DNA of 64,000 nucleotides from a virus (IMGVR_UViG_3300036781_000821:27888-91887), one strand, 5' to 3'. Shown: positions 20,740-41,226, counted from the first letter of the stretch. The notes: generated by a model not told the origin, from the sequence alone. Numbers and translations: made by a program.

Positions 20740-20927
20740 TTTTTCCTTGGGTTTGTGACCCTCGAAGCCAAGGCACAGGCGAACGCTCGATGACTGATGA
20801 TTGTGAAGGCAGCAGAAGAAAGAACGCTGCCCATGCCTTGGCCGCGAGAGTCTGGATTAACTGCCTTCACGAGGCCGACCATAAAGGCCAGCGTGAGCGT
20901 GTCAACACAATTTTTCGGATTCGGCAT
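20736..20927 (-). CDS. Hypothetical protein
   Basis: 63 aa, coupled to the downstream gene. Confidence 0.35.
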   Translation of the reverse strand: MPNPKNCVDTLTLAFMVGLVKAVNPDSRGQGMGSVLSSAAFTIISHRAFACALASRVTNPRKK

Positions 20928-21144: not shown

Positions 21145-21360
21145 TTGTAGCGGGGTTGGCGACGACGGGACCGGAATAGGTAGAAGAGAATGGCGAACGG
21201 GCCGAACATGATCACGTGCCCGAGCCTGACCAGGCGACCGAAATGGTCAAGAACAAAAGTGCGTTAGAATGTATGGTTTGACAAGCAACTCAGGCTAACC
21301 CGGCGCAAGGTTTTCGATGGCGCTGACGATTGATGGAAAGGCTCGTTTCGCACCTATCGA

Positions 21361-22512: not shown

Positions 22513-22522
22513 GAGCGACACA

Positions 22523-23605
22523 ATGCAGCAGGTTTTCAACACGCGTAACTATAGCGTTCGAGATTTTGAAGAATGGCAGCAACGCGACGAGCTTGTACTA
22601 CAGCCCAAATTCCAACGCCGCGAGGTATGGAGCGAAAAGGCTCGCTCCTATTTGATCGACACGATCATCCGAGGAAAGCCCATACCCAAGGTCTATATGC
22701 GGCAGGATGTCAATCCCAAGACCCGCCGCGTATTGCGCGAAATCGTCGATGGGCAACAGCGACTTCATTCCGTTCTCAACTTCTTGAAGGATGGATTTAA
22801 GATCAGCCGCGCCCACAACGAAGAGTTTGGCGGAAAAACATTCAGCCAACTGAACGAGGACGCGCAACGCGACATCCTCAAATACGAGTTCGCCGTTGAC
22901 CTCCTTCAGGACATGCCGGACAACGAGATTTACAATATCTTTGCGCGGATCAACACCTATTCCGAGAAGCTGAAGGATCAAGAATTACGCAATTCAAAGT
23001 GGTACGGCTTCTTCAAGTCTTCCGTTTATTTGCTCGCCGAAGAGTTCACCACATTCTTTGTAGAAAACAAGCTCTTCACCGCGAAAACGATCCTCCGCAT
23101 GGCCGAGGCCGAATTCATATCGGATCTTCTCCTGTCGATGCACGAGGGAATCGTCGCGCGGTCCAAGATGGTGCTCGACAACGCATACAAAAAATACGAT
23201 GATGATTTCCCGTCTCGCAAAACCTACGAAAAAAGGTTCCGTGAGACCATTGACATCATCAAGGCCATCCACGGTGATGACCTCGGGGAATCCGAATTTC
23301 GAGCGCAGCGGCTTTTCTATCCGATGTTCTGCTCGATTTACCACCTCAAGTACGGCCTTCCCAATTTCACGCTTCCCCGAAAGACGATCAAGGTATCGGA
23401 CTACCCCAAGATGAAGACCGCCCTTGAGTCGGTCGATACGCTACTGGAAGAGATCAAAGAATCTCACACCAACCCGGCTGCGCTCGCTCTTTCGGATGTT
23501 GACAGCAAGTTCTACGACTCAATAACAGTGCACTTCGTCCACGCGGACAAGCGCGTAATTTCCACGACCTACATTTGCCGAAAACTCGCCAAGGTATTGA
23601 GCTAA
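22523..23605 (+). CDS. DUF262 (GmrS/ParB-Srx fold) protein
   Basis: PKFQRREVW, IVDGQQR and IFARIN motifs. Confidence 0.9.
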   Translation: MQQVFNTRNYSVRDFEEWQQRDELVLQPKFQRREVWSEKARSYLIDTIIRGKPIPKVYMRQDVNPKTRRVLREIVDGQQRLHSVLNFLKDGFKISRAHNEEFGGKTFSQLNEDAQRDILKYEFAVDLLQDMPDNEIYNIFARINTYSEKLKDQELRNSKWYGFFKSSVYLLAEEFTTFFVENKLFTAKTILRMAEAEFISDLLLSMHEGIVARSKMVLDNAYKKYDDDFPSRKTYEKRFRETIDIIKAIHGDDLGESEFRAQRLFYPMFCSIYHLKYGLPNFTLPRKTIKVSDYPKMKTALESVDTLLEEIKESHTNPAALALSDVDSKFYDSITVHFVHADKRVISTTYICRKLAKVLS

Positions 23606-23611
23606 AAGTTT

Positions 23612-24253
23612 ATGCCTGCACCCCGCCTTCACTCAGCGCTAGTTTCGTTTTCCCGCTCCGTAGAAGAAGCACGGGACTTGGCTGATGACGCTCACCGATG
23701 GTCCACGCCCCCGCGCCCAGGCGCACGCTCCCAAATCACAATCCAACGGCGCAACACACTTACCGAGATGGCCTTTTTGAGAGCCTTCACAAGTTGGGAA
23801 AGCTTTTTAGAAGATACATTCCTTCTTTATTTGTTGGGTCATAAACCACCAAAGGGAGCGCCTCCCCGCCGTTATGGGTTTCCTCAAACCCCGGATGCGG
23901 CGGCAGAATGGTGTACCGATGGTAAGCCATATGCCAAATGGCACGTGAACGACGTGCAGCGCAGGGCGAACCGATGGTTCAAAGATGGAAAGCCGTTCAC
24001 TCCCGCGCTCCAAAGCCAGCAATCCCGACTGATGCAGCTCGTTAGCATTCGCAACGCGATTGCCCATGAATCCGACAGCGCCAAAGGTAAATTTGAAAAC
24101 GTCGTTCGCACTGAACTTGGGGCCGTGCCGCCGAACACGACGGTGGGTTCATTCTTGATGACGACCAAACCGAACACAACGCCTCCGATTTCGTTTCTGG
24201 AATTTTATGTCAGCGAGATTCTCCGGGCCGCTCAGAACATTGTCCCGAGATGA
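23612..24253 (+). CDS. HEPN-domain putative RNase
   Basis: WESFLED helix and RNAIAH (RxxxxH) motif. Confidence 0.8.
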   Translation: MPAPRLHSALVSFSRSVEEARDLADDAHRWSTPPRPGARSQITIQRRNTLTEMAFLRAFTSWESFLEDTFLLYLLGHKPPKGAPPRRYGFPQTPDAAAEWCTDGKPYAKWHVNDVQRRANRWFKDGKPFTPALQSQQSRLMQLVSIRNAIAHESDSAKGKFENVVRTELGAVPPNTTVGSFLMTTKPNTTPPISFLEFYVSEILRAAQNIVPR

Positions 24254-24327
24254 CGGAGGAAGGATTCGAACCTTCCTTACTGCGGGATTCGCACCCCATG
24301 TCAGCTTCCCTCGCCAGAGGCACCGTC
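24251..24327 (-). ncRNA. tRNA-like element / pseudo-tRNA
   Basis: 77 nt: acceptor GACGGtG/CtCCGTC plus A, T-arm GAAGG-TTCGAAT-CCTTC; D and anticodon arms non-canonical. Confidence 0.55.
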
Positions 24328-24391
24328 AAAACTGTTTCGTCCGCACCTTCAAAGGCGTAATCCACGTCGTAAGGGAAGGCAGACGCTTCGT

Positions 24392-24565
24392 TCATGGAAG
24401 GACACGCCATTCCAATCTTTGAACACGAGAATCGAGCGTTATTACCCAACCGACTCCCGCATACAGCCAGCAGCCAATTTGAAACGCGCCAATCATAGCC
24501 AGCGCGAAGAAGCACGCCAGAGCCACATCGACCCACACACTTTCCTTCTCAGACTTCCTACTCAT
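24392..24565 (-). CDS. Small membrane protein
   Basis: MSRKSEKESVWVDVALACFFALAMIGAF... Confidence 0.45.
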   Translation of the reverse strand: MSRKSEKESVWVDVALACFFALAMIGAFQIGCWLYAGVGWVITLDSRVQRLEWRVLP

Positions 24566-24588
24566 TCCATTCCTTCTGTTTTGGTCGA

Positions 24589-24780
24589 CTAACACATATC
24601 CGCCACGCGCACCCGTTTGTGCGCTGGCGGTTCCGGCATCTTCAACCGTAGATGCGGAAAGCTGGGGTTAAGGCTTGGCGTTGCTGGAATGCGCCTCATC
24701 AAAATGTGAAAGCTGCAAATCGCCGTCACCAGCCCGAAGATCAGCAGCCAGTACACCATTGCCCAATGTCGGAGCGTCAT
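24589..24780 (-). CDS. Small membrane protein
   Basis: 63 aa, one TM, coupled start. Confidence 0.45.
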   Translation of the reverse strand: MTLRHWAMVYWLLIFGLVTAICSFHILMRRIPATPSLNPSFPHLRLKMPEPPAHKRVRVADMC

Positions 24781-25193
24781 TTCAACATCTCCTCCACAGC
24801 GCCTAATGCTTTCACGGTTTCTTTAAGCGCGTGTCCACATGTGATGCACTCACTGAGCTTCGTTTTTCCCTCGTGTTCCGCGACCCGAGCGAGCAGATAA
24901 CGCACTTCTTCTACTAACTTCTCCACCAATGGCCGCATGTTAACGCTGGAGACGATCAGGGCTGCATTTGCTTCGGCGGTGACTGCATCATCATCGTCCG
25001 CATCGGGTATGCACCTGGCGACGAAAACTTCATTCGCGCTCTTGATCGTGTCGCTATGCTGAGTCCACGGAAGTGGGCTAGGCTTTTCTTTTTTCTTTGC
25101 CTGTTGCTTCCTCGCACGCGCTTTGTCCGCCGCGTCCTTCAGTTGATCGATCACATCGTAGATGTCCTCGACACATGGTTTTCCCTCATTCAT
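24777..25193 (-). CDS. Hypothetical phage protein
   Basis: PLPW...EANAALIVSSVN segment resembling the common phage TPGPW...ANA.LIAAAP family. Confidence 0.55.
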   Translation of the reverse strand: MNEGKPCVEDIYDVIDQLKDAADKARARKQQAKKKEKPSPLPWTQHSDTIKSANEVFVARCIPDADDDDAVTAEANAALIVSSVNMRPLVEKLVEEVRYLLARVAEHEGKTKLSECITCGHALKETVKALGAVEEMLK

Positions 25194-25492
25194 GCCTCTA
25201 CCTTTCGTACAGTTTTGCCCGTCACCGGGCATTTGATGTTTTCCACTTCCCGCAACAGCCCCGCTTCCACCAGCTCGCTGATTCTTGGTTGAACCGCGCT
25301 ACGGTGCTGAAAGCCCATGGCCTTCGCTATTTCCCGATCAGTGCCGCCTCCGTATCGCCGCACGTGCGCTAGGACTGCCATCGCCTTCTTGCCCAGCTTC
25401 GGCTTTTCCTCGCGGTAAGCATGTGCGCTGTTCTCATGCGTCCGGCGCACGTAGTCGTCAAACGTGAATTGCTCTGCGGCGTACACGCTCAT
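25190..25492 (-). CDS. Winged-HTH DNA-binding protein
   Basis: TDREIAKAMG...VQPRISELVEAGLL; coupled start at 25492. Confidence 0.7.
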   Translation of the reverse strand: MSVYAAEQFTFDDYVRRTHENSAHAYREEKPKLGKKAMAVLAHVRRYGGGTDREIAKAMGFQHRSAVQPRISELVEAGLLREVENIKCPVTGKTVRKVEA

Positions 25493-25665
25493 TCCTCCTG
25501 CTCGCTTTCCCCCAAATGAATGCTTATGACGACCGCGAACCCAGCGCACAAGCCGCCCACAAAGAAAGCTGCGCAAGCCAAGGGATAGAGGCCGCAGTGA
25601 TACGAATACACGCCCACGAGGACCATTTGCAGGGTAAGTCCCAGCTCCAAAAGTAGGTGTTTCAT
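25489..25665 (-). CDS. Small two-TM membrane protein
   Basis: MKHLLLELGLTLQMVLVG...; coupled on both sides. Confidence 0.5.
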   Translation of the reverse strand: MKHLLLELGLTLQMVLVGVYSYHCGLYPLACAAFFVGGLCAGFAVVISIHLGESEQEE

Positions 25666-25886
25666 CGTTTCGTCTTCCGGTCGACGATAAATCTGACCTT
25701 GCTCGGATCGTTCCAGTCCCGTTGACCCTTGACGACAAACTTCAGGTGACGAAGCGCGAACAACCGCGCCGCCATTGCGTCTTTGGCGGCCACGGTGAAC
25801 TCGCTCTTTAGCTGAAGATTGAGCGCGAGCAGCGCGAGCCCGACACGCGAGCGAACCTTCCGTTTGCGGGACACGCGCGTGGACAT
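25662..25886 (-). CDS. Basic hypothetical protein
   Basis: 74 aa, coupled. Confidence 0.45.
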   Translation of the reverse strand: MSTRVSRKRKVRSRVGLALLALNLQLKSEFTVAAKDAMAARLFALRHLKFVVKGQRDWNDPSKVRFIVDRKTKR

Positions 25887-26239
25887 TATTTGCCGCCTTT
25901 GGTTTGTTGTTGATCCTTCGGCCCATCGAGGAGAATCACGCGATCCACCACGACCGCTAGACGGCTATGACGCACCTGGTCTTGGCCGTCCCACACCTTC
26001 TTGACGAGATGGCCCTCGATGAACACACCCTTGCCCTTCTTCACGTACTTCTCGAAGATGTCGGAGGTCTTGCCCCACGCCTCGAAGTCGATGAAGTTCA
26101 CGCCACGCTCGCGGGTATCCCCTTGACCCACGGTGTAGTTCACGCCGAGCGAACCCGTCGTGACCTTGCTGCTCTTGGTTGTTCTCGTTTCGGGATCGGC
26201 GGCCACGTGGCCGGCCAACTGCACTTTGTTGTAGTCCAC
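25886..26239 (-). CDS. ssb: Single-stranded DNA-binding protein (second copy, no acidic tail)
   Basis: NKVQLAGHVAADPE...WGK...KGKGVFIEGHL; GTG start at 26239. Confidence 0.85.
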   Translation of the reverse strand: MDYNKVQLAGHVAADPETRTTKSSKVTTGSLGVNYTVGQGDTRERGVNFIDFEAWGKTSDIFEKYVKKGKGVFIEGHLVKKVWDGQDQVRHSRLAVVVDRVILLDGPKDQQQTKGGK

Positions 26240-26252
26240 TTGCTTCCTTCGG

Positions 26253-26747
26253 TTAGAGGTTGATGCCGAGTATGTACATGCCGATGAAGGCCACAATCCC
26301 GCCCACGACCTTGGCGGCTCTCACGATGCCGGGAATGAGCGCGATGGGAACGCACTCTTCGAGTGCGGGAACTTCATCCGGGCAGTACTTGGCGATTACG
26401 TAGTCGATTTGGCGAATGGCGGCATCTGCCGTCTTGCGCGAACCCATATCCCACGCATCCACTTCATTTTCTGGTTGCCAACTTAGGGAGTACCAGATTT
26501 CCTGTAGAGCATTAAGCTGCTCTGCGTCACGCAACGCAATACTAGCCTCATGTCCGTTTACATTCAAATAGAGCGCCTCTCCTATGTGGGACACTCCCTT
26601 AAGTTCGCGCATCCAACCAACGATGCAACATGAGTGAATTTGCATATGAGGAATTGGGCGCGGATTTGTCATCCATAAACACGCAGGATTCGCGTCGATC
26701 ATCCCGCGCACCTGCAACAACGTTTTCTTATCAATTACTGGATTCAT
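26253..26747 (-). CDS. Hypothetical protein with C-terminal TM
   Basis: MNPVIDKK...; lower GC than neighbours; lies between the two ssb genes. Confidence 0.5.
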   Translation of the reverse strand: MNPVIDKKTLLQVRGMIDANPACLWMTNPRPIPHMQIHSCCIVGWMRELKGVSHIGEALYLNVNGHEASIALRDAEQLNALQEIWYSLSWQPENEVDAWDMGSRKTADAAIRQIDYVIAKYCPDEVPALEECVPIALIPGIVRAAKVVGGIVAFIGMYILGINL

Positions 26748-26769
26748 TGTTTTTCTTTCTGTTGGTTGT

Positions 26770-27186
26770 TTAAAACGGAATGTCATCGCCGCTTTCGTCT
26801 ACGGCTCGACCTTCCTCTGGCGGCGCTTCCTCTCGCCTTGGCTCGCGTTTCTGCGAATCAGGCGACGAGAGAAATTGAACCCGATCAGCGCGAATGCGTG
26901 TGCGGCTTTTCTTTTCACCACCGGATTCCCATTGCTCGGTTTTCAGCCGCCCTTCTACCAACACGGCCCGGCCCTTGGCGAGATATTCCTTGCAAGCTTC
27001 GGCTTGACTGCCCCAGACCTCCACCTCGCCCCAATAGACCTCTTCCTTCACCCCGCCGGAATCGGTTTTATATTTGTGGTTCACTGCCAGCCCAAAATTG
27101 GACACGGCAGTTCCTTTCGGCGTGTACTTGCATTCGGGGTCGCGGGTGAGATGCCCAACGAGAATGACGCGATTGTAATTAGGCAT
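26770..27186 (-). CDS. ssb: Single-stranded DNA-binding protein
   Basis: NRVILVGHLTRDPE...KGRAVLVEGRL...DDIPF. Confidence 0.95.
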   Translation of the reverse strand: MPNYNRVILVGHLTRDPECKYTPKGTAVSNFGLAVNHKYKTDSGGVKEEVYWGEVEVWGSQAEACKEYLAKGRAVLVEGRLKTEQWESGGEKKSRTRIRADRVQFLSSPDSQKREPRREEAPPEEGRAVDESGDDIPF

Positions 27187-27796
27187 TTTTGGCCGCGCCT
27201 TTCTTCTTGGGTTCCACACCAAGCCGTTTGGCGGTCGCGGCGTAGAGCGACGCGAAGTGGTTGAGTTCTTGCTGGCTCAGTTTGTCCTTTATCGCCGTCA
27301 CCATCTTGCTGGTGTTTTCCAAGTCACCCGCGCTTTCGGAGGCAAGGAACTTCGATTCGATGTCCTCTAGCTTGTCTTTCGACACCAAGCTTGGGACTGC
27401 TCGCTTCATCGCGCCCTCAGCATCGTCGTCTTCAGTCACAACCCCGACAATCGCAGCCAGTGAATAGCGCCGTGCGTAGGTAATTGCGGAACCGACAGCT
27501 TGCGGATCAGTCTTAACCGCCGTCATCGTCAGCGTCCCGCTAATAAACTGCCCGGATTTGTGCATGAGCACCGTCTCGACGCTCACCGTACCCGGCACAT
27601 CTTCGGGCGCGAATACCTGAGACACGGCCAGATCGTTTGCCGTCAACGCTTCCCGGCAAGCATCCGTGACGCTTTCCAAATCCGCATACTTCGACTTGAA
27701 GTAGGGATTGTCCGCATCCTTCAGGGCTTTCTTCACTGCTTTCTGCGTGAGCACCAACGCCGCAGCCAACTCTCCAATGGAATCGCTTCTATTCAT
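27179..27796 (-). CDS. ERF-family single-strand annealing protein
   Basis: NPYFKSKYADL and GSAITYARRYSLAAIVGV..EDDDAE. Confidence 0.92.
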   Translation of the reverse strand: MNRSDSIGELAAALVLTQKAVKKALKDADNPYFKSKYADLESVTDACREALTANDLAVSQVFAPEDVPGTVSVETVLMHKSGQFISGTLTMTAVKTDPQAVGSAITYARRYSLAAIVGVVTEDDDAEGAMKRAVPSLVSKDKLEDIESKFLASESAGDLENTSKMVTAIKDKLSQQELNHFASLYAATAKRLGVEPKKKGAAKNA

Positions 27797-28554
27797 TACC
27801 GCGCTCCGATTGCGAGTTTGATGTCCTCTTCGAAGAACATTCCCGGCGTTTTCAGCGTCCCTGCCTCATCCAGCTTCAGCGCGGCTTGCACCTTCGACGC
27901 GCTCAGCGTGATGTCAAACAAATCGGGACGTGCAGCGAAGGCCAGCTTCGCGTCGACAACTTGGGCCTTGTACCGCTTCCGCAATTGAGTGCCCTTGGTC
28001 TGATTGGCTTGCGCTTCCAGTTCGCGTTGCTGGCTGGCTTGAATCTCCACAGCCGCACGGACGTTCACCTTGTCGAGCTTCTTTTCCAACTTCCCGCGCT
28101 CGGCTTCCGTGATTTGCTCGCTTTCCAGTTTCTTGCGGAGCTTTTCTTCCTCTGCGCGCGCGGCGGCGAGTGCTTCCTCACGCTTGCGCCGTTCTTCGGC
28201 CTCGACGCGCTCTTGTTCCTCGCGCTTTTGGCGCAGGAAACTCCCACAAGCATTCTGGAGGCGATTGACTTCCGCATCCACGTCCGCGGTGAAGGTTTTT
28301 GCCACGTTGTCGATTTCCTTGCCCAGCGCGAGCAAAGGTTCCTTAAGTTCCTTCCTCGTCGCTTCCACGCTGTTGCTCAGGGCTTTTAGGTCACGCACGA
28401 CTTCGACTGCGCTCTGTTGGGTTTCATCGTTGGTTACGGTCGTGATACTCGCGGCCCGAGTGGTCAACGCTTTTTTCTGGTCATCAGCTTCCTGCGTTAT
28501 GGCGATTGCAGGTGCTTTGAACCCCGGCTTCATTAACATCAGTTCCTTGCTCAT
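27796..28554 (-). CDS. Coiled-coil phage protein of the recombination module
   Basis: 252 aa; VEATRKELKEPLL; coupled to ERF. Confidence 0.6.
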   Translation of the reverse strand: MSKELMLMKPGFKAPAIAITQEADDQKKALTTRAASITTVTNDETQQSAVEVVRDLKALSNSVEATRKELKEPLLALGKEIDNVAKTFTADVDAEVNRLQNACGSFLRQKREEQERVEAEERRKREEALAAARAEEEKLRKKLESEQITEAERGKLEKKLDKVNVRAAVEIQASQQRELEAQANQTKGTQLRKRYKAQVVDAKLAFAARPDLFDITLSASKVQAALKLDEAGTLKTPGMFFEEDIKLAIGAR

Positions 28555-28564
28555 TTCGGTCTTT

Positions 28565-28648
28565 CTAGTTGAGTGCTGCCAATGCGATCAATGCGCCGAG
28601 GCACACGCCTAGCAGCACCGCATTGGTGAATTTGTTTATCGTTTGCAT
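28565..28648 (-). CDS. 27-aa membrane peptide, first gene of leftward operon
   Basis: MQTINKFTNAVLLGVCLGALIALAALN. Confidence 0.35.
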   Translation of the reverse strand: MQTINKFTNAVLLGVCLGALIALAALN

Positions 28649-28748
28649 GGCGCGACCCTACCAGCCAGCAGCTCGGGGTCAAGTCTTTTTGAAAACTTTC
28701 TTTTCAAAAAGTTCTTGCCTTCTGGTCTACGCTCTGCAAACTGAGCGC

Positions 28749-29039
28749 ATGAACGTACTCGATCAATTCGCCAACATCGCCAAGACTCACGGCGCAATCG
28801 CCGCATACAACGCTCGCAAGAGCCAACCCGAAAGAATGCCGCTTATGCTGTGCTGGCCCGTGGAGCAATGGCATTGCCAAGATTGCGGCCATAAATGGAC
28901 TACGCCGCCGAACGATCGCGCACAGGGCGAACCCGAGTGTCCCAAGTGTGCCAATCCCGAGGAACGCGACGAAGTACCCGCATCCGGCCCACGCTGGAAT
29001 GATCCACTGGCCCAGAACTGGCTTGGGGAGCGCGGTTAA
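28749..29039 (+). CDS. Small zinc-ribbon protein
   Basis: CQDC...CPKC; start moved to ATG at 28749. Confidence 0.55.
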   Translation: MNVLDQFANIAKTHGAIAAYNARKSQPERMPLMLCWPVEQWHCQDCGHKWTTPPNDRAQGEPECPKCANPEERDEVPASGPRWNDPLAQNWLGERG

Positions 29040-29061
29040 ACCATAAAACGGAAGGCACAGC

Positions 29062-29961
29062 ATGACCAAGGAAGCGCTCAGCCAGATCACGGACGTTCTT
29101 TTCGAGCGTCTTTGCGAGGCGATGGAATCCGGCGCGAACGACGATGTGAAAGCCGTTCTCAAGTCAATGAGCGCGTTTCACGACTACAGCTTTGCGAATG
29201 TCTGCCTCATCCTGAGCCAGTTCCCGAAGGCTACGAAGGTCGCGGGTTTCCGCACGTGGGAGAAATTCGACCGCCACGTGGTGAAAGGATCAAAGGGAAT
29301 CGGTATCCGGGTTCCCATGCGCTACAAGAAAGGCGAGGCGACCGAGGAGGAGCAAGCGACCGGAATCTTTTTCGGCGTTGGGCATGTGTTCGACATTTCC
29401 CAGACCGAGGGCGCACCACTCCCCGACTTTCACAGTGATCCGGTTAGGGGCGAACCCGCCGCATTGTTGGAGAAGTTGCGCGAGAACATCACCGCGAGCG
29501 GGATCAAGCTTGACTACGTTGAACACCTTGCTGGAGCCGAAGGTGTTTCCAAGGGCGGCGCGATTGCGATCAAAGACGGCCACGAACGCCCGAAAGACTT
29601 CGCCGTTCTTTGCCACGAATGGGCGCACGAACTCTTGCATAGGGATGGCAACCGCCACGCGCTGACCAAGACGCAAAAGGAAACGGAGGCCGAAGCGACT
29701 GCCTACATCGTCTCCACCGCAATCGGCCTCGATCTTGGCAACAGTTCCGCGAACTACATCGCGCTTTACAACGGCGACAAAGCCACGCTCAAAGCCAGCA
29801 TGGACAGGATTCAAAAAACCGCGCAGTTCATTTTGAAGGGGCTGGGTTACGGACGGCAGGAAGAACCCTACCACAGCACACGCCCCTCTTTAGCCCTCAG
29901 CCAAATAACCCCGGCGAGTTACGCCAACCCGCCACCAAAACAGAAAGAACCAGCAATATGA
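29062..29961 (+). CDS. ArdC-like ssDNA-binding/metallopeptidase antirestriction protein
   Basis: FHDYSFANVCLI, VAGFRTW...VVKGSKGI, VFDISQT, HEWAH zincin motif and ETEAE. Confidence 0.85.
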   Translation: MTKEALSQITDVLFERLCEAMESGANDDVKAVLKSMSAFHDYSFANVCLILSQFPKATKVAGFRTWEKFDRHVVKGSKGIGIRVPMRYKKGEATEEEQATGIFFGVGHVFDISQTEGAPLPDFHSDPVRGEPAALLEKLRENITASGIKLDYVEHLAGAEGVSKGGAIAIKDGHERPKDFAVLCHEWAHELLHRDGNRHALTKTQKETEAEATAYIVSTAIGLDLGNSSANYIALYNGDKATLKASMDRIQKTAQFILKGLGYGRQEEPYHSTRPSLALSQITPASYANPPPKQKEPAI

Positions 29962-31493
29962 CGACAGAACTACCCGTAAAGTCCCTCGAACCGTCCCCGA
30001 CGAACCCGAGGAAAACTATCGACAAAACCACAATCGCGGAACTGGCCGAGTCCATAAAGACAAACGGCCTCCTGCAGCCGCTTCTCGTCCGGCCCCTAGG
30101 CAAGAGCAAAGACCGCTATGAAGTAGTTTGCGGTAATCGCCGCTTGCTGGCCTTGCGGCAAACTGGCCTCGAAAAATGTCCGGTAACAGTCCGTGAGCTG
30201 ACCGACGAGGAAGCCGTCGACGCGCAGCAGGTCGAGAACTTGCAGCGCGAGGACGTGCCACCGCTCGAAGAGGGAGAGGCTTTCGCCGCACTGGTGAAAA
30301 AGTACAACGTGGAAATGGTCGCGTTCAAGGTGGGCAAGACTCCGGCGTTCATTCGCCGCCGCATCATGTTGACCAGACTAACGGGCGATGCCCGGACGCT
30401 CCTGCAAAAAGGCGAGTTGCCGATCAAGTCGGCAGAGATGATCGCCGGGATCGAGGACGAGAAAGCGCGAAAGGCATTGGTCGACGGTCTCCGATGGGCT
30501 GGGAAGTCGCCCGAGGATATAGCGGGAGCTATTCGCCAGACGATTCTTCAGAAGATCAGTAAGGCCCCGTTCGACACGCGCAAGGTTTACGGATGCGCCG
30601 ATGAGCAGCCGACAACCTGCGACGTTTGCCCGTTTAACACCGCAGCCAAGAGCGGTAGTCTGTTCCCCGAATTGGCGAAGGACGCGCAATGCACAAATGG
30701 CAAATGCTTCCGGGCAAAGACCGACGCGCATTACCAGATCAAGGTTGACGAACATTTGCAGAAAGGTGGGAGCAAGTTGGGCGAGCAGGATGCGAAGAAG
30801 TGCTGGCCGCGCAATTACTATAGCGGCGGGGACATGCCTGTCAGCGATCGCGCACCGTTCATCGAATTGAGTGTTGTGCAGCCGCTCTTCAAAAAGGCGA
30901 AGGTGGATTTGCCGAAGGATAAAGTGTTTATCGTTCGCAATCCGAGCACCCAGAAGGTTCACTACGTCGTCGCGCGGGATTTCGCTAGCAAGGTAATGCC
31001 CAAACCAAAGAAAGAGGAACCGACACGCAGCAGGGGAGAGTCTGCCGCCGCGAAGCTCAAGTACGAAATCGAAACCGCCGTGCGCGAGCAAGCGCAAGTG
31101 GCTTACGCGACGGAATTCGCAAAGCTGAAGGCGATTGACGGTAGAATCCACCGCGCACTCGCGAACATTCTTGGCGACGAAATCCATGGAAGCGATTGGG
31201 AATTGTTTGCCAAAGCTTTCGCAACCGAGACCCCTCCACAGGGCAAGGGCTACGATGCGGCGCAGAAGTGGGGCAAGAAATTCTTGGCAGGACTGGACAA
31301 GAATCAACTCCCGGCTTTCATCGTGTTGGCCATCGCCATGAAGGACTGCTATGGCGCGACACCGGAAATACGTGCATTGGCTACAGCCGCAGGAGTGGAT
31401 TGCAAGAAACTCGAAGCAAACGTAACCAAACAGGTCAAGGCTCAGCTTGCGGAGCGAAAGAATGCGGAACCCGCGACCAAGGCGGCAGCATGA
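29958..31493 (+). CDS. ParB/Spo0J-domain protein with long C-terminal extension
   Basis: ELAESIKTNGLLQPLLVRP, CGNRR, ENLQRED; Cys cluster CDVCP...CTNGKC. Confidence 0.9.
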   Translation: MTTELPVKSLEPSPTNPRKTIDKTTIAELAESIKTNGLLQPLLVRPLGKSKDRYEVVCGNRRLLALRQTGLEKCPVTVRELTDEEAVDAQQVENLQREDVPPLEEGEAFAALVKKYNVEMVAFKVGKTPAFIRRRIMLTRLTGDARTLLQKGELPIKSAEMIAGIEDEKARKALVDGLRWAGKSPEDIAGAIRQTILQKISKAPFDTRKVYGCADEQPTTCDVCPFNTAAKSGSLFPELAKDAQCTNGKCFRAKTDAHYQIKVDEHLQKGGSKLGEQDAKKCWPRNYYSGGDMPVSDRAPFIELSVVQPLFKKAKVDLPKDKVFIVRNPSTQKVHYVVARDFASKVMPKPKKEEPTRSRGESAAAKLKYEIETAVREQAQVAYATEFAKLKAIDGRIHRALANILGDEIHGSDWELFAKAFATETPPQGKGYDAAQKWGKKFLAGLDKNQLPAFIVLAIAMKDCYGATPEIRALATAAGVDCKKLEANVTKQVKAQLAERKNAEPATKAAA

Positions 31494-31693
31494 CCACGCC
31501 GCACCTTACCAGATGCCGTGTTTGCCGCTGCACAGAGGAACGTGCATGTAATCCACCATGTGCATGGGAGCGCGGAGAAGAAGACCTTTGCGACTCATGC
31601 GCGAAGGTTGTTCGAGCCGTAGCAGAGTGGCTTAACACAGGCCGCAGGCCGAGCTTCGCGGCCCTAAAACGAGAGGCTCAGAAGGCCGCATAG
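31490..31693 (+). CDS. Small Cys-rich phage protein
   Basis: CRVCRCTEERACNPPCAW...DLCDSC; ATGA-coupled to parB. Confidence 0.65.
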   Translation: MTTPHLTRCRVCRCTEERACNPPCAWERGEEDLCDSCAKVVRAVAEWLNTGRRPSFAALKREAQKAA

Positions 31694-31699
31694 AAATTT

Positions 31700-31815
31700 G
31701 CAGGTGCAGCAAGGTGGGTTACTGCCGCGACCGCGCTCCGAAGGCGCGGCGCGAAGTTCGGCAGGGGTTTGCGGTTTTTTTTCCCTGCTAGTCGGTTCAA
31801 ATCCGGCCACCTGCA
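31700..31815 (+). ncRNA. tRNA-like structured RNA (116 nt)
   Basis: Perfect 7-bp acceptor GCAGGTG/CACCTGC plus A; T-arm GTCGG-TTCAAAT-CCGGC; 3-bp D stem; extended anticodon-like stem CCGCGC-TCCGAAG-GCGCGG; long variable arm GCAGGGG/TCCCTGC. Confidence 0.7.
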
Positions 31816-31913
31816 TTTTCCGATTCGCGTTATTTCCGGCCTCTCACTTTTCGTTCTCGCTCCGGGCTGCTACGCAGTCCTCGCGCCGTTCGAGGCGCAG
31901 AATAACCACCGAA

Positions 31914-32258
31914 CTATTGCACAAGACACCGAGCTTCAATCTTTGCGATCTGCCATTTGTGCTTTGGCGTTTCGGCAAACTGGTCCATGCGCTGCCCCTC
32001 TTCGAGAACGTCCTGAACACGGCGTTCAAAAACGGTGTGAAGCGCGAGCAGGTTTTTGCCTGTGATCTTCACCAGCCAGTACGAGAATACGACCAAAACC
32101 ACATCGTCCTTGATTTCGCAGCCGCCGAATTGAAGCCACGGGAAAATCCAGCCCTCAGCCTTGTTAGCCTTTTTGAGCGTCAACGTCTCGCTCATCGTCG
32201 GAGCAGGCAACGCCTTGGGCATTACCCGGTCTGTCACTTTTGTTTCTAACGTATTCAT
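31914..32258 (-). CDS. Relaxase-associated hypothetical protein
   Basis: 114 aa, ATGA-coupled to the relaxase. Confidence 0.6.
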   Translation of the reverse strand: MNTLETKVTDRVMPKALPAPTMSETLTLKKANKAEGWIFPWLQFGGCEIKDDVVLVVFSYWLVKITGKNLLALHTVFERRVQDVLEEGQRMDQFAETPKHKWQIAKIEARCLVQ

Positions 32259-35005
32259 CTGCTTACCTCCTGTGCCATGCTGACCCCTTGAGTTTGGGCG
32301 GCGGCGACGCTAGCACGCCCAGAGTTACCGTACGACCGTCCCGCTTGCTGCGTATGGGCGTGAGCCACGTTAACCGCTTGCGCCTTCGCCGCAAGCTCCA
32401 TTGCCGTCTGACGCGCCCCCGAGCGATTGACGCTGTCCCGCAGACCTTCCAAGTTACTCGTGAACACCTGGCACGTCTCCCGCGCCCGAGACACCGACAC
32501 GTAAAACGCGTCGTGGCGCATGTGGTCGCCGGAGACGATGACGTTATCGACCGTCTTGGACTGTGCAATGTAGCTGGTGGATGCCCAACCGTGTTTCATG
32601 TGCCCGAAGTCGTGATTGATTGAACGACCATCCTTCAGCCGCATCGCCGTCCCGTCCTGCGCCTTCTCCACCTGCACGCGCTCGCCGTTGGTCAGATCCA
32701 AGTCCCGGTCGTTTTTCTTCAGGATCAGGAAATCGCCATCGCAGACTTCGATTGAAGACTGTTTGTACACCGAGAAATTCTTGGCCTGTTTTGCAAGGTC
32801 CACTTCTTTCCCGCCGCGCAACACGCCGTCTTTCCGCACTTCGCCGCCGACGTAGGCAACGCCGTTCTTTGCCGCTGTAACCTCTAAATTCTTTCCCGCA
32901 TTCGCGCCCTTGAAAAATGCCAGTACCAGCCCCGGCTGGTAGAACTCCGCTTTCTGCTTTTCCTCATTCGACCAATTCAACGCTTCCAGTTTTGGAATCG
33001 TCACGCCCTCTTTGGCGAGATCGCCCATTTCCTTTCGCTTTGCGCGGATGGCGGCCGTCAGCTCCTCGACCTCGGCATTGGACGGCGTGACCACCACGGT
33101 ACTGCCGTGCAATTGGGAATGAGCTTCGGCCACCAACGTTGCACGCTCGCGTCGATCCACTTCCTTGATCGTTCCCATTTCTTGCAGCTTGGCGAAGGCC
33201 CGCTCCGGTTCTTTCCACGCATCCTTGACCGCCTCGTGATATGCCGGGAATTGTTCGGGATCTTGCCGCACGTTCAAGTCGAGCATTTTGGACGCGAGAC
33301 GGCTTTCCTTCTCCATCATCCGCAGCGCATCGCACGCGGTTACCGGGCCATGTTGTTCGGTGTCACCAGAGAACATCATCCGCGCACCATAGCGATGGCA
33401 TACGTCCATCAGTTTTTTCATGTCCTCGCCGCCGACCATTCCCGCCTCGTCGACGATCAGCACGCGCCCTTTCATCAGGGCTTGCTCCTCGCGGCAGCCC
33501 AGGAAGCTGGCTATGGTCATGGGATTCTCGACACCTTCCTCGGCCAGCGACTTCACCGCCGAATGCGTTTGCGCCACCACCGTGCAAACCTTTCCGTTTT
33601 GTCCAAGACCGCGCACCATTTCCGCGATCAGGTGAGTTTTGCCCGCGCCGGCGATGCCCTGGACGTTCACCGCCCAATCCGTCGATTGGAACGCCCAGTC
33701 CAAGACTTCCTGCTGTTTTTCGTTCAGGCCCTTGCCCGTGTACGGAATTGTGCCGAGCTTGCCGTGGGCGCCAACGCCCTCATTGACTATCGCGACCATG
33801 TCTTCCTCCCGCTGATACGCTTCCTTGGTCGTGCATTCGCCGTCAACGGCCAACACCGCCTTCGACTCTTTCAGCACGTTCCACACGGTTTGAACGTCCG
33901 AGAAATTGACATGGCCGCGATTAAACCGGAGCGCAGCGGCTAGCACATCGACTTCCTTGGCGACTGAGACTTGCGAGAAGGTGTGTTTAATCGCCGACTG
34001 CACAGCTTCGTGCGCGGACTGGTAGGTGATGTCCTCGCCGCGACCGGAAAGCTCGATGGCGTGATCCCGCGCCGCCCGAAGCCGTTCGCTCATGCCGGGA
34101 AACTTGGCTTCAGCTCGCGCCTTTTGCATGGCAATGACATCGGCGGTGCTAATCTCGATTAAGTTGTCGGGCCGCGTTTCGCGGTACAAGTGCGAGATCA
34201 GGTTGTCCGACGGGTGAATGCCGTGGGGATTTTTGGCCTTGTCGTTCTTGAACGCCTCGACCGCGGCGGCCACAGCCTTCGATCCCTGGCTAAACTCCTC
34301 GCTCTCCTCCTGCCGCACACAGGCCAGACCGAACCCCATTTCCTTGTCGTTCTTGTACGGCATTGTCCGTAGAACATAGCCGCCGTCTATGCACAGCCCG
34401 GCCAGAATGTTGCGGTAGACCTCGGTCGCGAGCGCCTTGGCCTCATACATCTTTTCGGTTTGGAGGGCTTTCCAACGTCCCTCCTCCACATCCTGGGTCA
34501 GGTTCCCGCAGGTCAGATGGCTGTGAAGGTGTGGATCTAGCGCGCGGGAGCAGTCATGTTCAAACCGCGCATAGATCAAATTCCCGGTCAGCCTGGTCTC
34601 GTCTTTTTTCCCGAACAGCCGTACTCGCGTCCCGGCCTGTTTCTCGACGAACTCCATCGCCTCGCTGACGGCCTGCTTGTGCCACTCGGGAATGCGTTCA
34701 TCCCCGCCGATCCGCCACTGGATTGATAGATCCTTCGGGCAGGCGAACACCCAATCGTAAAACGTCCGACCGTTCTCCCGCTCGTGGCTGAATCGTTGGC
34801 GAAGCTTCGCGCCTGTTAAGGGATCAAGACCTTGCCGCATCCTCTCGAAAGCTTGCTCCGTGACCTCACCTTCAAGTCCCAGCAATCGCGCTCCGCGACC
34901 TTTCCACGTGCCAACCGATTGATCGTTTTTGTCGAGGTAATCCTTATAGGAAAGGTGGCTTACGAAGTACGTGTCACCTCGATAGAGGGGCATTCCGTTG
35001 AGCAC
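32255..35005 (-). CDS. MOBF (TrwC/TraI-type) relaxase-helicase
   Basis: N-terminal DY...W.G.GA..LGL.G, YDWVFACPKDLS, HDCSRALDPHLHSH (HUH); helicase motifs GIAGAGKT, IVDEAGM, GDTEQH, FYVSVSRAR. Confidence 0.95.
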   Translation of the reverse strand: MLNGMPLYRGDTYFVSHLSYKDYLDKNDQSVGTWKGRGARLLGLEGEVTEQAFERMRQGLDPLTGAKLRQRFSHERENGRTFYDWVFACPKDLSIQWRIGGDERIPEWHKQAVSEAMEFVEKQAGTRVRLFGKKDETRLTGNLIYARFEHDCSRALDPHLHSHLTCGNLTQDVEEGRWKALQTEKMYEAKALATEVYRNILAGLCIDGGYVLRTMPYKNDKEMGFGLACVRQEESEEFSQGSKAVAAAVEAFKNDKAKNPHGIHPSDNLISHLYRETRPDNLIEISTADVIAMQKARAEAKFPGMSERLRAARDHAIELSGRGEDITYQSAHEAVQSAIKHTFSQVSVAKEVDVLAAALRFNRGHVNFSDVQTVWNVLKESKAVLAVDGECTTKEAYQREEDMVAIVNEGVGAHGKLGTIPYTGKGLNEKQQEVLDWAFQSTDWAVNVQGIAGAGKTHLIAEMVRGLGQNGKVCTVVAQTHSAVKSLAEEGVENPMTIASFLGCREEQALMKGRVLIVDEAGMVGGEDMKKLMDVCHRYGARMMFSGDTEQHGPVTACDALRMMEKESRLASKMLDLNVRQDPEQFPAYHEAVKDAWKEPERAFAKLQEMGTIKEVDRRERATLVAEAHSQLHGSTVVVTPSNAEVEELTAAIRAKRKEMGDLAKEGVTIPKLEALNWSNEEKQKAEFYQPGLVLAFFKGANAGKNLEVTAAKNGVAYVGGEVRKDGVLRGGKEVDLAKQAKNFSVYKQSSIEVCDGDFLILKKNDRDLDLTNGERVQVEKAQDGTAMRLKDGRSINHDFGHMKHGWASTSYIAQSKTVDNVIVSGDHMRHDAFYVSVSRARETCQVFTSNLEGLRDSVNRSGARQTAMELAAKAQAVNVAHAHTQQAGRSYGNSGRASVAAAQTQGVSMAQEVSR

Positions 35006-35345
35006 GTGACCAGCATGAGGCAGCTTGGAAAGAGCGTCAAATTTGGGCTTTTAGGGGATCTGGAGGTAAATCCAGGATAGTGGGCCTCCCCCTATCAGAC
35101 GAGCTACTGAGAAGAGAAACATCTACCCCTAAGCGCTTCGCGCTTGGGAAAACCGCGTTTGCAGGGGCGCGCCAGGACCAGGCTACTCCAGAGGCGCATG
35201 GTATACTGGACTTGAGCTTAGGCTCACGAAAAAAAAACTTCAAAACACAAACTCAAAACCTACACACTTCACAAACTTAAAAACTACACACAAAATTAAA
35301 CTCCAAAAAAAACTTACTCTTTAAAAAACTTCTTCTGCTTTTGCT
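35006..35345. promoter_or_regulatory. Putative oriT / relaxase promoter region
   Basis: Non-coding region upstream of the relaxase with hairpins AAGCGC-TTC-GCGCTT (35131-35145) and TGAGC-TTAG-GCTCA (35213-35226). The nic site cannot be placed. Confidence 0.4.
35229..35336 (+). other. 108-nt G-free tract
   Basis: Hand count: 58 A, 27 C, 23 T, 0 G. Confidence 0.95.
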
Positions 35346-35445
35346 TTTTGCTGATTTTGGGCTCACCGGCTGGAGCCACCGTTTGAAGAGATGCACCTTG
35401 GAGTAGTGTAGGGACAATCTTCCTGACGGCCGGGTAGGAGATTGT

Positions 35446-35631
35446 GTGCGTAGACCGCGTTTCGACCCCCATCGGGTCATCAACCAGATTAAGTATTGGG
35501 CCATCGAGATCACGATCCTGGTCCTGTTTTTGAAGTGGCTCGGCGGTTCTCTTTGGCACGAGCTGGGCTTCGATCACTCGGCGGAAGCCAAAGCCGCGCA
35601 GAGCTGTGTTGTGGAACAGCCACGGAGGTAG
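35446..35631 (+). CDS. Small membrane protein
   Basis: 61 aa, one TM. Confidence 0.4.
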   Translation: MRRPRFDPHRVINQIKYWAIEITILVLFLKWLGGSLWHELGFDHSAEAKAAQSCVVEQPRR

Positions 35632-35640
35632 AATCAGGCC

Positions 35641-35961
35641 ATGACCGTAGCCGAACTCCGCGAGGCCCTTGCCGGGTATCCCGACGACGCGCCGCTTCAG
35701 ATCCACATGGAGCGATTGCCGGACGACAACGAAGAAGCGTTCGTCGTGAACGTCCAACCGAATTATGCGGGCTGGAGCGAGCGCGAGCATAAGCCCCACG
35801 TCGTGCTGTACGGCGAGCAATTCCCAAAGGACTTCATCGAGACGACCCGCGACCGGGTTGTGGAACGTGCAAAACAGTTCAGCAAATGGGATTGGCCTTA
35901 CGGGATGTGGAACTGGTGGGAAGCGAAACAGTGGAAGCGGACGTTTGGGCGAGGACGTTAA
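35641..35961 (+). CDS. Hypothetical phage protein
   Basis: MTVAELREALAGYPDDAP start, common in small phage proteins. Confidence 0.6.
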   Translation: MTVAELREALAGYPDDAPLQIHMERLPDDNEEAFVVNVQPNYAGWSEREHKPHVVLYGEQFPKDFIETTRDRVVERAKQFSKWDWPYGMWNWWEAKQWKRTFGRGR

Positions 35962-36085
35962 GGCGTGCTCGATTTGTGCTCGAAGTAATCCGCGCCGAAC
36001 GGCACGGGGCTGACTTGCGGGATTCGCAATTGCTAGAACGATGCCACTGGAAACGCTAAATTCTGTGTTTCCAATTTACCGTCGT

Positions 36086-36131
36086 CTTCCCAAGCTGGAC
36101 GTCGCCGGTTCGACCCCGGTCTCCCGCTCCA
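36086..36131 (+). repeat. 3' half of tRNA-Gly(CCC); probable attR
   Basis: CTTCCCAAGCTGGACGTCGCCGGTTCGACCCCGGTCTCCCGCTCCA: anticodon loop, T-arm and CCA are present, but the 5' half is missing. Confidence 0.85.
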
Positions 36132-36228
36132 ACATCTTCTTTTGCTAGTTGTTGTTAGGCGCAATCTTCGCGCCGCTCTTTTTCCCTCGTGACTCCGCAA
36201 GACTCCAATCGCGCGGTACCCTCGAATT

Positions 36229-39783: not shown

Positions 39784-39868
39784 CCTCCACGACTGCTCAT
39801 GGTCGGTCGGGAACGACTGGGGCCAGGGTAACAGTCCGCTCTACGCAACTAGTTTCGAGAAAAAGTGT

Positions 39869-39904
39869 GATCTCGCGTAGCGTCCTGATGCTGCCGGGTG
39901 TTCG
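39869..39904 (+). repeat. Direct repeat copy 2, abutting the integrase stop
   Basis: GATCTCGCgtAGcGTCCTGATGCTGCCGGGTGTTCG. Confidence 0.85.
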
Positions 39905-41011
39905 TTATTGGAGTGGTTCCTGTTTGGCGAGTGCGGTGGTGAGGTGGTCGATGGCTTCCTGTTGCCGTTTGATGCCGACTTTGTTGTAGACGTTTGTGCT
40001 GACGTCGACGGTGTGCCCGCATTGTGCTGCGACGATGGTTGCGTCCGCGCCGTTCGCGTTTAGCAGTGTGACGGCGGTGCGCCGGAGTGCTTGGAAGGTG
40101 ACGCCGTTGAGCTTGAGTTTGTCGAGTGTTGGTTTGAGGTAGCGTCGCCAGTAGTTCCCGTGCGATACGGGCTTGTTGCCGGGTTCGTTCGGGAAGACCC
40201 AGTTGTCCTCTTTGGCGTCGGGCGTTGTCTCGCGCCAGGCGGTGAAGTCTTCGCGGATGCTCGTGCTGATGGCGGCGGTGCGTACGCTGTGATGCGTCTT
40301 TGGGGTTTGGATGATGCCGCGGTAGATGCCGCGCGTGATGTGCAGCCCGTCGGGTTGGAGGTCGTGCCATTGGAGGCCGAGGATCTCGCCGGGGCGTAGC
40401 CCGCTGATGCCTGCGAGGCTGATGACTAGCTTCTCCCGGAGGGGGAGGGCTGCGAGGAGGGTGCGGAGTTCATCGAGGGACAAGACGCGTTTGTCTCGTT
40501 GATGGTTGCGTGTTGGCGCGTGCAGGAGTTCCGCAGGGTTGCGTTGCAGGAGTCCGTCGTTGACCGCCATGCGAAATATTTGTCGTAGGTCCCACCGGAG
40601 GTGTCCGACCGTGCTCGTGCTAAGCCCGGCGCTGGCTTTCCGGTCGAGGAAGTCCTGGAGGATGGTCCGGTTGAACGACGAGAGCGGTCGGTTCCCCTGC
40701 TCCTTGAGGAGGTGGTGGTCCACGCGGTCCTTCGTGGTCATCGCGGTGCTCGGTTTCCATTTGCGCTCGTACCAGGGGAAGACGACGTGTCGCGTGAACC
40801 CTTGGAGGCTGTACTCGACGAGGCCACGCGCTTCGTTCACGGGCTGTACAAGTTTGGTGAGCTCGGCTTCTGCGTCGGCCTTGGTCATCGTGGCGCAGTT
40901 CCCGAGTTTCTTCGAGCGGTGGTGACCGTCCTCCCACCATGCCCCGAGCCATGTCCAGACGCCCCCGCTCTTGCGCTTCCGTAGGCTCCCGTGTTGTGCT
41001 CTCGCGCTCAT
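39905..41011 (-). CDS. Tyrosine integrase
   Basis: SGLRPGE, TPKT, QALRRT, CGHT, NVY; real start MSARAQHGSL at 41011. Confidence 0.92.
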   Translation of the reverse strand: MSARAQHGSLRKRKSGGVWTWLGAWWEDGHHRSKKLGNCATMTKADAEAELTKLVQPVNEARGLVEYSLQGFTRHVVFPWYERKWKPSTAMTTKDRVDHHLLKEQGNRPLSSFNRTILQDFLDRKASAGLSTSTVGHLRWDLRQIFRMAVNDGLLQRNPAELLHAPTRNHQRDKRVLSLDELRTLLAALPLREKLVISLAGISGLRPGEILGLQWHDLQPDGLHITRGIYRGIIQTPKTHHSVRTAAISTSIREDFTAWRETTPDAKEDNWVFPNEPGNKPVSHGNYWRRYLKPTLDKLKLNGVTFQALRRTAVTLLNANGADATIVAAQCGHTVDVSTNVYNKVGIKRQQEAIDHLTTALAKQEPLQ

Positions 41012-41226
41012 GTGTGTGCTGCACGAACAACAATGCCTTGATCCTGTCGGGAAAGCCAATCGAAAAGCGTCTCGCGACGCACTAACACGCGTCGTCCGAG
41101 ACGTACTGCTGGGAGTCGTTCTGCGCTTGTGATGTGACCGTTGATGAGTTTGCTCACGTGGGCTTTGGAGACGCGCAGGAGTGTTGCGACTTCGTGGAGC
41201 GTGAGGAGGTTTGGCGTTTCGTTCAT
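41008..41226 (-). CDS. Excisionase-like HTH protein
   Basis: LLTLHEVATLLRVS...LPAVRLGRRVLV; coupled to the integrase. Confidence 0.85.
   Translation of the reverse strand: MNETPNLLTLHEVATLLRVSKAHVSKLINGHITSAERLPAVRLGRRVLVRRETLFDWLSRQDQGIVVRAAHT

Follow-up and report, generated by a model that had tools for sequence, protein, structure and literature searches.

A maintained tailed prophage and a complete MOBF mobilisation module joined in one att-bounded element from a soil metagenome

When a relaxase of the conjugative type is encoded among phage genes, does it belong to the phage or to something that landed beside it, and what might it do there? This question was raised by a 64,000-nucleotide (nt) stretch of viral DNA, hereafter the window, which constitutes the final 64 kb of IMGVR_UViG_3300036781_000821, a 91,887-bp provirus record of IMG/VR whose source sequencing run, labelled as a soil metagenome, is the sole run holding the window. 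The locus is a single element, bounded by one pair of attachment (att) sites, that combines a maintained tailed phage with a complete MOBF mobilisation module and is thus a hybrid between a phage and an integrative mobilisable element (IME). The relaxase module, which a preliminary description of the window had suspected to lie inside a complete prophage, is therefore an integral part of it.

The limits of the element were established on the whole record; in what follows, positions are those of the window unless they are given as contig positions. The fragment of a tRNA-Gly gene that had been proposed as an att site was real, as it is a perfect copy (48/48) of the 3' end of tRNA-Gly(CCC), comprising the final 46 nt of the gene and 2 nt past its end. 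The attL site and the integrase, which were expected to the left of the window, were both found there: ARAGORN identified the intact tRNA-Gly(CCC) gene 7.5 kb to the left of the window, with the integrase gene after it, while it detected no tRNA within the window, and blastn revealed no third copy of the repeat in the 92-kb record. The octamer GTGCTCGA is present twice just inside attR and the motif recurs just inside attL (contig 20404-20423), repeats that likely represent arm sites of the integrase given their resemblance to such sequences. Because the att repeats are perfect and lack a third copy, and because GTGCTCGA is shared by both ends, we consider contig 20323-64020, spanning 43.7 kb with one att pair, as one element. 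The features of its two ends are the following:

Contig 20294-20368, left of the window: attL, the intact tRNA-Gly(CCC) gene
Contig 20424-21509, attL end, outside the window: tyrosine integrase
Contig 22929-24482 (L002:4929-6482), attL end, outside the window: ATPase of 517 amino acids (aa) resembling type IV coupling proteins (T4CPs), Pfam TraG-D_C
35965-35983, no strand: two GTGCTCGA repeats, likely arm-type integrase sites (repeat D7, sequence flanking attL, blastn)
36086-36133, plus strand: attR, the 48-bp copy of the tRNA-Gly(CCC) 3' end (ARAGORN and blastn)

From attL to attR, the element carries the tyrosine integrase, a helix-turn-helix (HTH) protein and the T4CP-like ATPase, all three left of the window; then the tail and fibre genes, a tail-collar fibre, the major capsid protein, the portal, the large terminase subunit (TerL), an HNH endonuclease, a moron, single-stranded DNA-binding proteins (SSBs), an ERF recombinase and an exonuclease-like protein; then, on the opposite strand, an operon for zinc-finger, ArdC, ParB-like and Cys-rich proteins; and finally a 114-aa open reading frame (ORF), the relaxase-helicase, non-coding DNA and two small plus-strand genes. 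The preliminary description had noted the lack of a coupling protein and of an integrase in the module; for the coupling protein this holds within the window and fails for the element, and both genes are located at the attL end. When the ends are joined in the excised circle, the late genes are followed by the soluble T4CP, the HTH protein and the integrase, then by attP, the small membrane protein and the oriT hairpin, and last by the relaxase-helicase and the coupled small gene; the T4CP, integrase, attP, oriT and relaxase make up one block, and the integration module is enclosed by the MOBF mobilisation module.

Such an arrangement bears on the possibility that the relaxase module is a separate adjacent element, acquired by site-specific accretion, or the product of a chimeric contig. 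tRNA genes are hot spots for accretion, and other mobile elements lie on both sides in this record. Nevertheless, only two att copies exist and none is internal, and the relaxase and oriT are located at the opposite end of the phage genes from the T4CP and the integrase, which is impossible to obtain from a tandem; a tandem of a phage and an integrative conjugative element (ICE) was accordingly rejected by the lack of an internal att copy and of VirB4 and by this splitting of the mobilisation genes between both ends. Contiguity is supported by a Logan contig, assembled independently from the source run, that matches window positions 22000-36115 with zero differences, so that a second assembler gave the same junction, and the same synteny was found in G406, an IMG/VR provirus of 43,097 bp from another sample, recovered by scanning IMG/VR with the portal and TerL. 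These two results rule out a chimeric assembly, and we regard the explanation as a whole as exceedingly improbable.

The Logan contig ends inside the tRNA repeat and the next contig goes on at equal depth, the read depth being 16.3 inside attR and 16.0 outside. In the source sample, then, the element was in its integrated state and had not been induced. Loose ends at the att site derive from the tRNA-Gly genes of other organisms and are uninformative as to excision. The relaxase has relatives mostly in Acidobacteriota (Acidobacteriaceae and Bryobacteraceae) and a further, more remote group of them in Verrucomicrobiota, and a protein identical to the T4CP of the element is on record on a 383-kb contig; on these grounds the host is most likely a soil acidobacterium and the element chromosomal. 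Integration at a tRNA gene, the depth values and the 383-kb contig likewise led us to reject a phage-plasmid, that is, extrachromosomal lysogeny.

The genes and sites between the ArdC/ParB operon and attR are:

31914-32258, minus strand: 114-aa ORF, translationally coupled to the relaxase gene, whose stop codon it overlaps by 4 nt
32255-35005, minus strand: MOBF (TrwC/TraI-type) relaxase fused to a superfamily 1B (SF1B) helicase, 916 aa (Pfam TrwC 5e-61, AAA_30 1.3e-33)
35114-35148, minus strand: candidate oriT hairpin CCCAAGCGC-GAA-GCGCTTAGG, followed by GGTAGATGTTTC, the putative nic region (inverted repeat I3)
35235-35327, no strand: G-free, A+C-rich tract with iteron-like direct repeats of ~24 nt (direct repeat families D1-D3)
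35446-35631, plus strand: 61-aa membrane protein, 47% identical to the ORF at the same position in G406
35641-35961, plus strand: 106-aa protein with a strong ribosome-binding site, read from the sequence

The relaxase domain (PF08751, TrwC) covers residues 10-299 of the 916-aa protein, whose best sequence matches in the PDB were TraI of F (2e-46) and TrwC of R388 (3e-27). In an alignment of 20 sequences, made of the window protein and 19 relatives 33-41% identical to it, Tyr13 and Tyr23 fall on almost invariant columns and the three-His metal motif (H150/H161/H163) is invariant; we take Y13 and Y23 to correspond to Y18 and Y26 of TrwC. The helicase motifs are also intact: Walker A GAGKT, Walker B DEAG (within VDEAGM) and motif III SGDTEQ. 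By its motifs, therefore, this protein is predicted to be an intact MOBF relaxase-helicase, in agreement with the preliminary description, which had also recognised a coupled partner gene. The latter is the 114-aa ORF, for which no Pfam family match was obtained and which has a weak homologue at the equivalent position of G406 (27% identity, E 2e-6); a 183-aa ORF at 31698-32249 looks spurious. The nearest relative of the relaxase, P0002, is 41% identical, and the relaxases of both phages group with it in trees (SH-aLRT 97). The branches of the two phage proteins are 3-5 times longer than those of the chromosomal relatives, and long-branch attraction may be behind this grouping. Scans of genome contigs and of viral contigs with the single relaxase protein, and of viral contigs with P0002 and with P0122 and P0131, two of the nearest relatives of the T4CP described below, yielded no close relatives.

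In the DNA upstream of the relaxase gene, 125 nt from its start in the sense of the gene, lies the candidate oriT hairpin. G406 has the hairpin CCTAAGC-GAA-GCTTAGG, then GAGTGGTGTCG, ~115 nt upstream of its own relaxase gene. The oriTs of the MOBF family, such as those of R388 and F, consist of an inverted repeat closely followed by a GGTGT-type nic region. The window has a single occurrence of the pattern AAGC-N(1-9)-GCTTAGG, against an expectation of 0.13, and 22 relaxase loci taken from genomes contain it, when ~3 matches would be expected by chance over all loci; in ~20 of the 22 the pattern precedes GATGGTGTCT and lies 0.1-2.9 kb away from the relaxase gene. Across the relaxase loci the stem of the hairpin is kept and the loop is variable, and the spacing from the stem to TGT is 6 nt in the window and in G406 and 5 nt in the others. 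Taken together, these comparisons point to the hairpin and the GGTGT-like stretch as a candidate oriT of the whole relaxase family, of which the prophage would have its own diverged copy. Family-wide, in these ~20 acidobacterial genomes (loci L003-L048, e.g. L017:9772-9800), the motif has the form CCTAAGCC-N4-GGCTTAGG, then GATGGTGTCT. The G-free repeat tract located between the hairpin and the small plus-strand genes might act as an array of binding sites or as an unwinding element, and nothing clearly equivalent was seen in G406. The two small plus-strand genes form an operon (35446-35961), with a weak DUF6225 match below the cut-off.

The third part of the module, the T4CP-like protein, was recognised by the TraG-D_C family at 30.6 bits, against a cut-off of 22, and a PDB search with its sequence returned no match. 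An AlphaFold2 model built on 60 relatives reached a pLDDT of 89.9, and its top match in Foldseek was TrwB-deltaN70 (E 3e-11, TM 0.55-0.66, 13-16% identity), followed by Cag-beta and DotL and only then by HerA and VirB4. A profile search of 1.84 billion representatives retrieved 2668 relatives, most of the best-scoring ones having ~500 aa. In 17 of 80 genome loci, mostly of Verrucomicrobiota, the hidden Markov model of this family matched an ORF located no farther than 10 kb from a related relaxase; the gene adjoins the relaxase gene in L081 and in G404, and the family pairs with relaxases in two Terriglobia genomes, G404 and G049. The TrwB fold of the predicted model, together with the linkage to relaxases, identifies the 517-aa protein as a T4CP, albeit an atypical one.

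Comparison with G406 provided the best view of what is maintained. This is the sole related record that the portal and TerL scans of IMG/VR gave (TerL 91% and portal 74% identical), and it is syntenic with the window over ~30 kb, from -560 to 28754, with 53-97% protein and 65-91% nucleotide identity; the late virion proteins are 58-91% identical. For the six structural genes tested, dN/dS was 0.06-0.25 and dS ~0.8-2, which implies that both phages have long been separated yet maintained. Outside this core, G406 keeps the same parts in the same positions, namely the relaxase (33%), the T4CP-like protein (29%), the HTH protein (31%), the hairpin, the coupled small ORF (27%) and the small membrane ORF (47%). 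The integrase of G406 bears no relation to that of the window element and adjoins the relaxase gene instead of the T4CP gene, and in the circular form both elements are alike, with the T4CP, HTH, integrase, small genes, oriT and relaxase. Close relatives devoid of the module would have refuted the preliminary reading; this was not the case, as G406, the only close relative found, has the relaxase, coupled gene, hairpin and T4CP in place.

Could the mobilisation genes then be decaying passengers without function, left by a chance fusion of an IME with a phage? The loss of the Asp in the Walker B motif of the T4CP, the long branches of the relaxases and the lack of a visible helper are what such a relic would show. 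Against it, both phages have complete ORFs and undamaged catalytic motifs despite a core dS of ~1 or more, the hairpin has been kept and its changes parallel those of the relaxase, and neither the coupled small ORF nor the membrane ORF has been lost; we therefore give little credence to this explanation.

The same backbone occurs without a phage in bacterial genomes. In the Terriglobia genome G049, an island at tRNA-Gly(CCC), with an integrase 53% identical to that of the window element, contains the T4CP-like protein, the hairpin and the relaxase (L117:16629 to L118:18801, contig 14; its right end was not reached), and its cargo is non-phage: a 1719-aa RHS-repeat protein and TIG, PA14 and PAP2 proteins. 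In G404, the T4CP-like gene and the relaxase gene are divergent neighbours with the hairpin in between. As G049 and G404 carry the backbone without a phage, we consider it an IME family; in the window element and in G406 a phage genome takes the place of its cargo.

What would such a module do for the phage? The reading that we prefer, to which we assign a probability of about 0.55, is that it mobilises the excised circle through a borrowed type IV secretion system (T4SS), possibly also starting rolling-circle replication. After excision, the relaxase would bind the hairpin and nick just 3' of it, its helicase would unwind the DNA, and the T4CP would pass the complex of relaxase and single-stranded DNA (ssDNA) to the T4SS of a co-resident conjugative element; ArdC and SSB might guard the incoming strand, and the integrase would insert the circle at the tRNA-Gly gene of the recipient. 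The excised circle may also replicate by the rolling-circle mode with this nick and helicase, a possibility raised by the fact that no other initiator or helicase was recognised. The element would have in this manner two routes of spread, virions and mobilisation.

Several observations weigh against mobilisation. The T4CP-like protein lacks an N-terminal membrane segment, as none of the 20-residue windows along its 517 aa is hydrophobic; it conserves the Walker A motif GAGKT, but the Walker B Asp (residues 329-335), where the family consensus is DE, is replaced by Gly in the window, Ser in G406 and Gln in P0122, the Glu being invariant. Owing to the missing anchor and Asp, docking or ATP hydrolysis by this protein may be different, or may not take place. 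The 92-kb record holds no T4SS gene, with no VirB4 family (PF03135) match and none in Pfam scans of large ORFs, so that the helper is hypothetical; VirB4-like genes are present in some acidobacterial genomes, and therefore helpers may exist in the phylum. The nic site of the candidate oriT was placed by likeness to MOBF sites, a correspondence that we assume. Genes like ardC and parB occur in ordinary phages too, according to the PHROG matches, and thus do not point specifically to conjugation. Finally, only one close relative is available, so the conservation of the module rests on two genomes, and TerL relatives (26-36% identity) in nine of 401 Terriglobia genomes have no linked relaxase. 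Single tallies of three scans include an unpublished genome (G102 or G111), and no conclusion depends on these.

Some of these observations fit an alternative in which there is no conjugation at all: the relaxase-helicase and the hairpin would be a rolling-circle initiator and its origin, and the T4CP-like ATPase would have been repurposed. Replication started by a nickase is known for ICEBs1 (NicK) and phage P2 (the HUH initiator gpA), which use a host helicase and are not known to have a T4CP; here, too, site-specific cleavage of an excised or injected circle by a nickase could set off replication. Besides the relaxase-helicase, Pfam and PHROG scans recognised no replication initiator, replicative helicase, primase or polymerase in the element; the iteron-like tract lies next to the hairpin, the long branches of the phage relaxases look as if constraints had changed, and both the T4CP without anchor or Walker B Asp and the record without a T4SS agree with this possibility. 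However, rolling-circle replication is not known to involve a T4CP and yet the protein is kept in both phages, and its family is linked to the same relaxase family in non-phage islands, including that of G049, where with non-phage cargo a role in phage replication makes no sense. Moreover, several early ORFs are unannotated and could conceal a conventional initiator. Replication as the only function is, in our opinion, unlikely, while being an alternative to be taken seriously next to mobilisation.

The operon located between the phage genes and the relaxase, whose zinc-finger, ArdC, ParB and Cys-rich genes had been correctly predicted, comprises:

28749-31693, plus strand: variable accessory operon (Pfam, PHROG, motifs)
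28749-29039, plus strand: DUF4379 zinc-finger protein (Pfam)
29062-29961, plus strand: ArdC (ArdcN 4.9e-9, HEWAH at residues 185-189, PHROG anti-restriction 2e-10)
29958-31493, plus strand: ParB-like protein (ParB_N 4.9e-24, PHROG ParB family)
31490-31693, plus strand: 67-aa Cys-rich ORF coupled to parB

The association of these genes with the relaxase module, also part of the preliminary description, stood as far as their presence is concerned. They are not among its conserved parts, as G406 has in their place a Dcm-type C5 DNA methylase and three unknown ORFs; this replacement led us to propose that ArdC and ParB, together with the zinc-finger protein, are replaceable cargo for anti-restriction or establishment.

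Regarding the phage part, its genes with head, tail and lysis functions indicate a temperate, podovirus-like phage, as predicted from their sequences. They are distributed as follows:

1142-16796, minus strand: late (virion) operon, which extends left of the window to contig 24936
1142-2725, minus strand: 527-aa virion/amidase-like protein (PHROG amidase 5e-11)
2725-5250, minus strand: 841-aa fibre
6870-7994, minus strand: tail-collar fibre (Pfam Collar 4.6e-22)
9005-9976, minus strand: major capsid protein (PHROG major head protein 8e-27; weak Pfam capsid match)
11422-13317, minus strand: portal (weak match to SU10_portal, 1e-4, below cut-off)
15375-16796, minus strand: TerL, 473 aa, assigned only by its Walker A and B motifs (by eye) and position
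18986-19366, minus strand: HNH endonuclease (PHROG HNH families, best 3.3e-14)
21361-24253, plus strand: three-gene moron encoding a DNA methyltransferase, a DUF262/GmrSD_N protein and a HEPN protein (Pfam)
25886-28554, minus strand: early recombination genes (Pfam and PHROG)
25886-26296 and 26770-27222, minus strand: SSB-like protein and SSB, respectively (Pfam SSB 1.4e-32, PHROG SSB 9.6e-26)
27179-27796, minus strand: ERF recombinase (Pfam ERF 3e-24)
27796-28554, minus strand: 252-aa exonuclease-like protein (PHROG exonuclease 6e-12)

The right edge of the conserved phage core is at ~28754, where the blastn alignment with G406 stops. The moron is kept better between the two phages than the capsid genes (81-97% identical), with dN/dS of 0.01-0.02 for the DUF262 and HEPN genes only. 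Tandem repeats of ~60 nt are present at 20243-20656, inside the ORF at 19912-20793, and also in G406, as judged from multiple offset blastn matches. A PDB sequence search with TerL gave no match, and scans of metagenome contigs with TerL and with the 252-aa protein gave no close relatives.

The DNA around the element has features of its own. To the right of attR, mobile-looking DNA at 39849-46682 includes a 747-aa ATPase (41223-43466) with weak FtsK/HerA/AAA_10 matches and no match in a PDB sequence search, and a second tyrosine integrase is encoded at 54085-55449. To the left of tRNA-Gly, L001:1774-3648 encodes a replication initiator of plasmid type (Pfam RPA, 2.7e-12) and L001:15514-18621 a soluble TrwB-like ATPase of 1035 aa that carries an HTH_17 domain at its C terminus; by its gene content, this DNA appears to be another mobile element or a defence island.

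Relaxases of this kind were infrequent in the viral collections that we searched. Among 50,697 phage records the only matches were two short fragments from faecal contigs of uncultured origin and none was a full homologue, a result limited by that collection, and PHROGs has no family for the relaxase domain. A pattern scan of IMG/VR identified three other records with TrwC-type domains, in none of which the VirB4 family was matched. One separate observation concerns G409 (L087:7230-13051), a complete-looking phage genome of 49,288 bp that has direct terminal repeats and encodes an HK97 capsid protein; it is unrelated to the window phage and has a canonical VirD4-type T4CP (PF02534, 1.7e-37) beside a 1048-aa TrwC relaxase-helicase, with no VirB4 match.

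How does this element relate to systems already described? IMEs are known that lack a mating-pair apparatus but are equipped with an integrase, an oriT, a relaxase and a coupling protein of their own (PMC5704250, PMC11389934). The window element shares with them the tyrosine integrase and tRNA att site, the MOBF relaxase near an oriT-like hairpin, its own T4CP and the lack of VirB4, and differs in that its cargo is a complete tailed-phage genome of ~30 kb under purifying selection, whereas an IME is by definition non-viral. Phage-ICE tandems (Huang et al. 2026, PMC13651849) also tie a prophage physically to conjugation functions, so that conjugation might move the unit as a whole; in them, two elements, one of which is a complete ICE, are joined at att sites, in the words of the authors "rather than a hybrid element", in contrast to the single att pair, the absence of a T4SS and the mobilisation genes flanking the phage genes on both sides reported here. 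Phage-plasmids (Pfeifer et al. 2021, PMC7969092; PMC10123127) can likewise combine phage genes with ParB, ArdC and a relaxase of plasmid type, and six of 222 E. coli phage-plasmids encoded any conjugation-related element (PMC10123127); they are, however, extrachromosomal, while our element is integrated at a tRNA gene with a depth equal to that of its flanks. With the TrwC/TrwB/oriT system of R388 and TraI of F (PDB 1omh, 1e9s, 5n8o) it has in common a Tyr and three-His relaxase fused to an SF1B helicase, a T4CP-like fold corresponding to the cytoplasmic domain of TrwB, and an oriT formed by an inverted repeat and then a nic region. The identity is low (13-16% between the T4CP and TrwB), and unlike R388 and F the element lacks the membrane domain and the Walker B Asp of the T4CP, a T4SS and a recognisable TrwA-type accessory protein. 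In the literature we found no integrated phage described as having an oriT, a relaxase and a T4CP of its own; closest among published cases are the phage-ICE tandems (PMC13651849) and the few phage-plasmids with conjugation genes (PMC10123127), and a "conjugative prophage", Phi1207.3 (PMC4260502), is also on record.

In summary, our work identifies an integrated element in which a maintained phage is joined to a complete MOBF mobilisation module. As a tentative generalisation, a temperate phage lineage of Acidobacteriota, perhaps part of a wider class to which G409 would belong, could be at the same time a lineage of IMEs, leaving the cell as virions or as ssDNA through a borrowed pore and using the relaxase as a replication initiator. 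Phages and conjugative elements are seen as separate routes of transfer, the host range being set by receptors in the former and by mating-pair formation in the latter. If the proposed mobilisation is true, a phage with a working oriT, relaxase and T4CP could enter hosts lacking its receptor and spread without killing the donor, and an IME carrying a phage genome would gain an exit that needs no contact between cells. Furthermore, the hairpin and its nic motif offer a concrete, testable oriT for a large and unstudied family of relaxases of soil Acidobacteriota.

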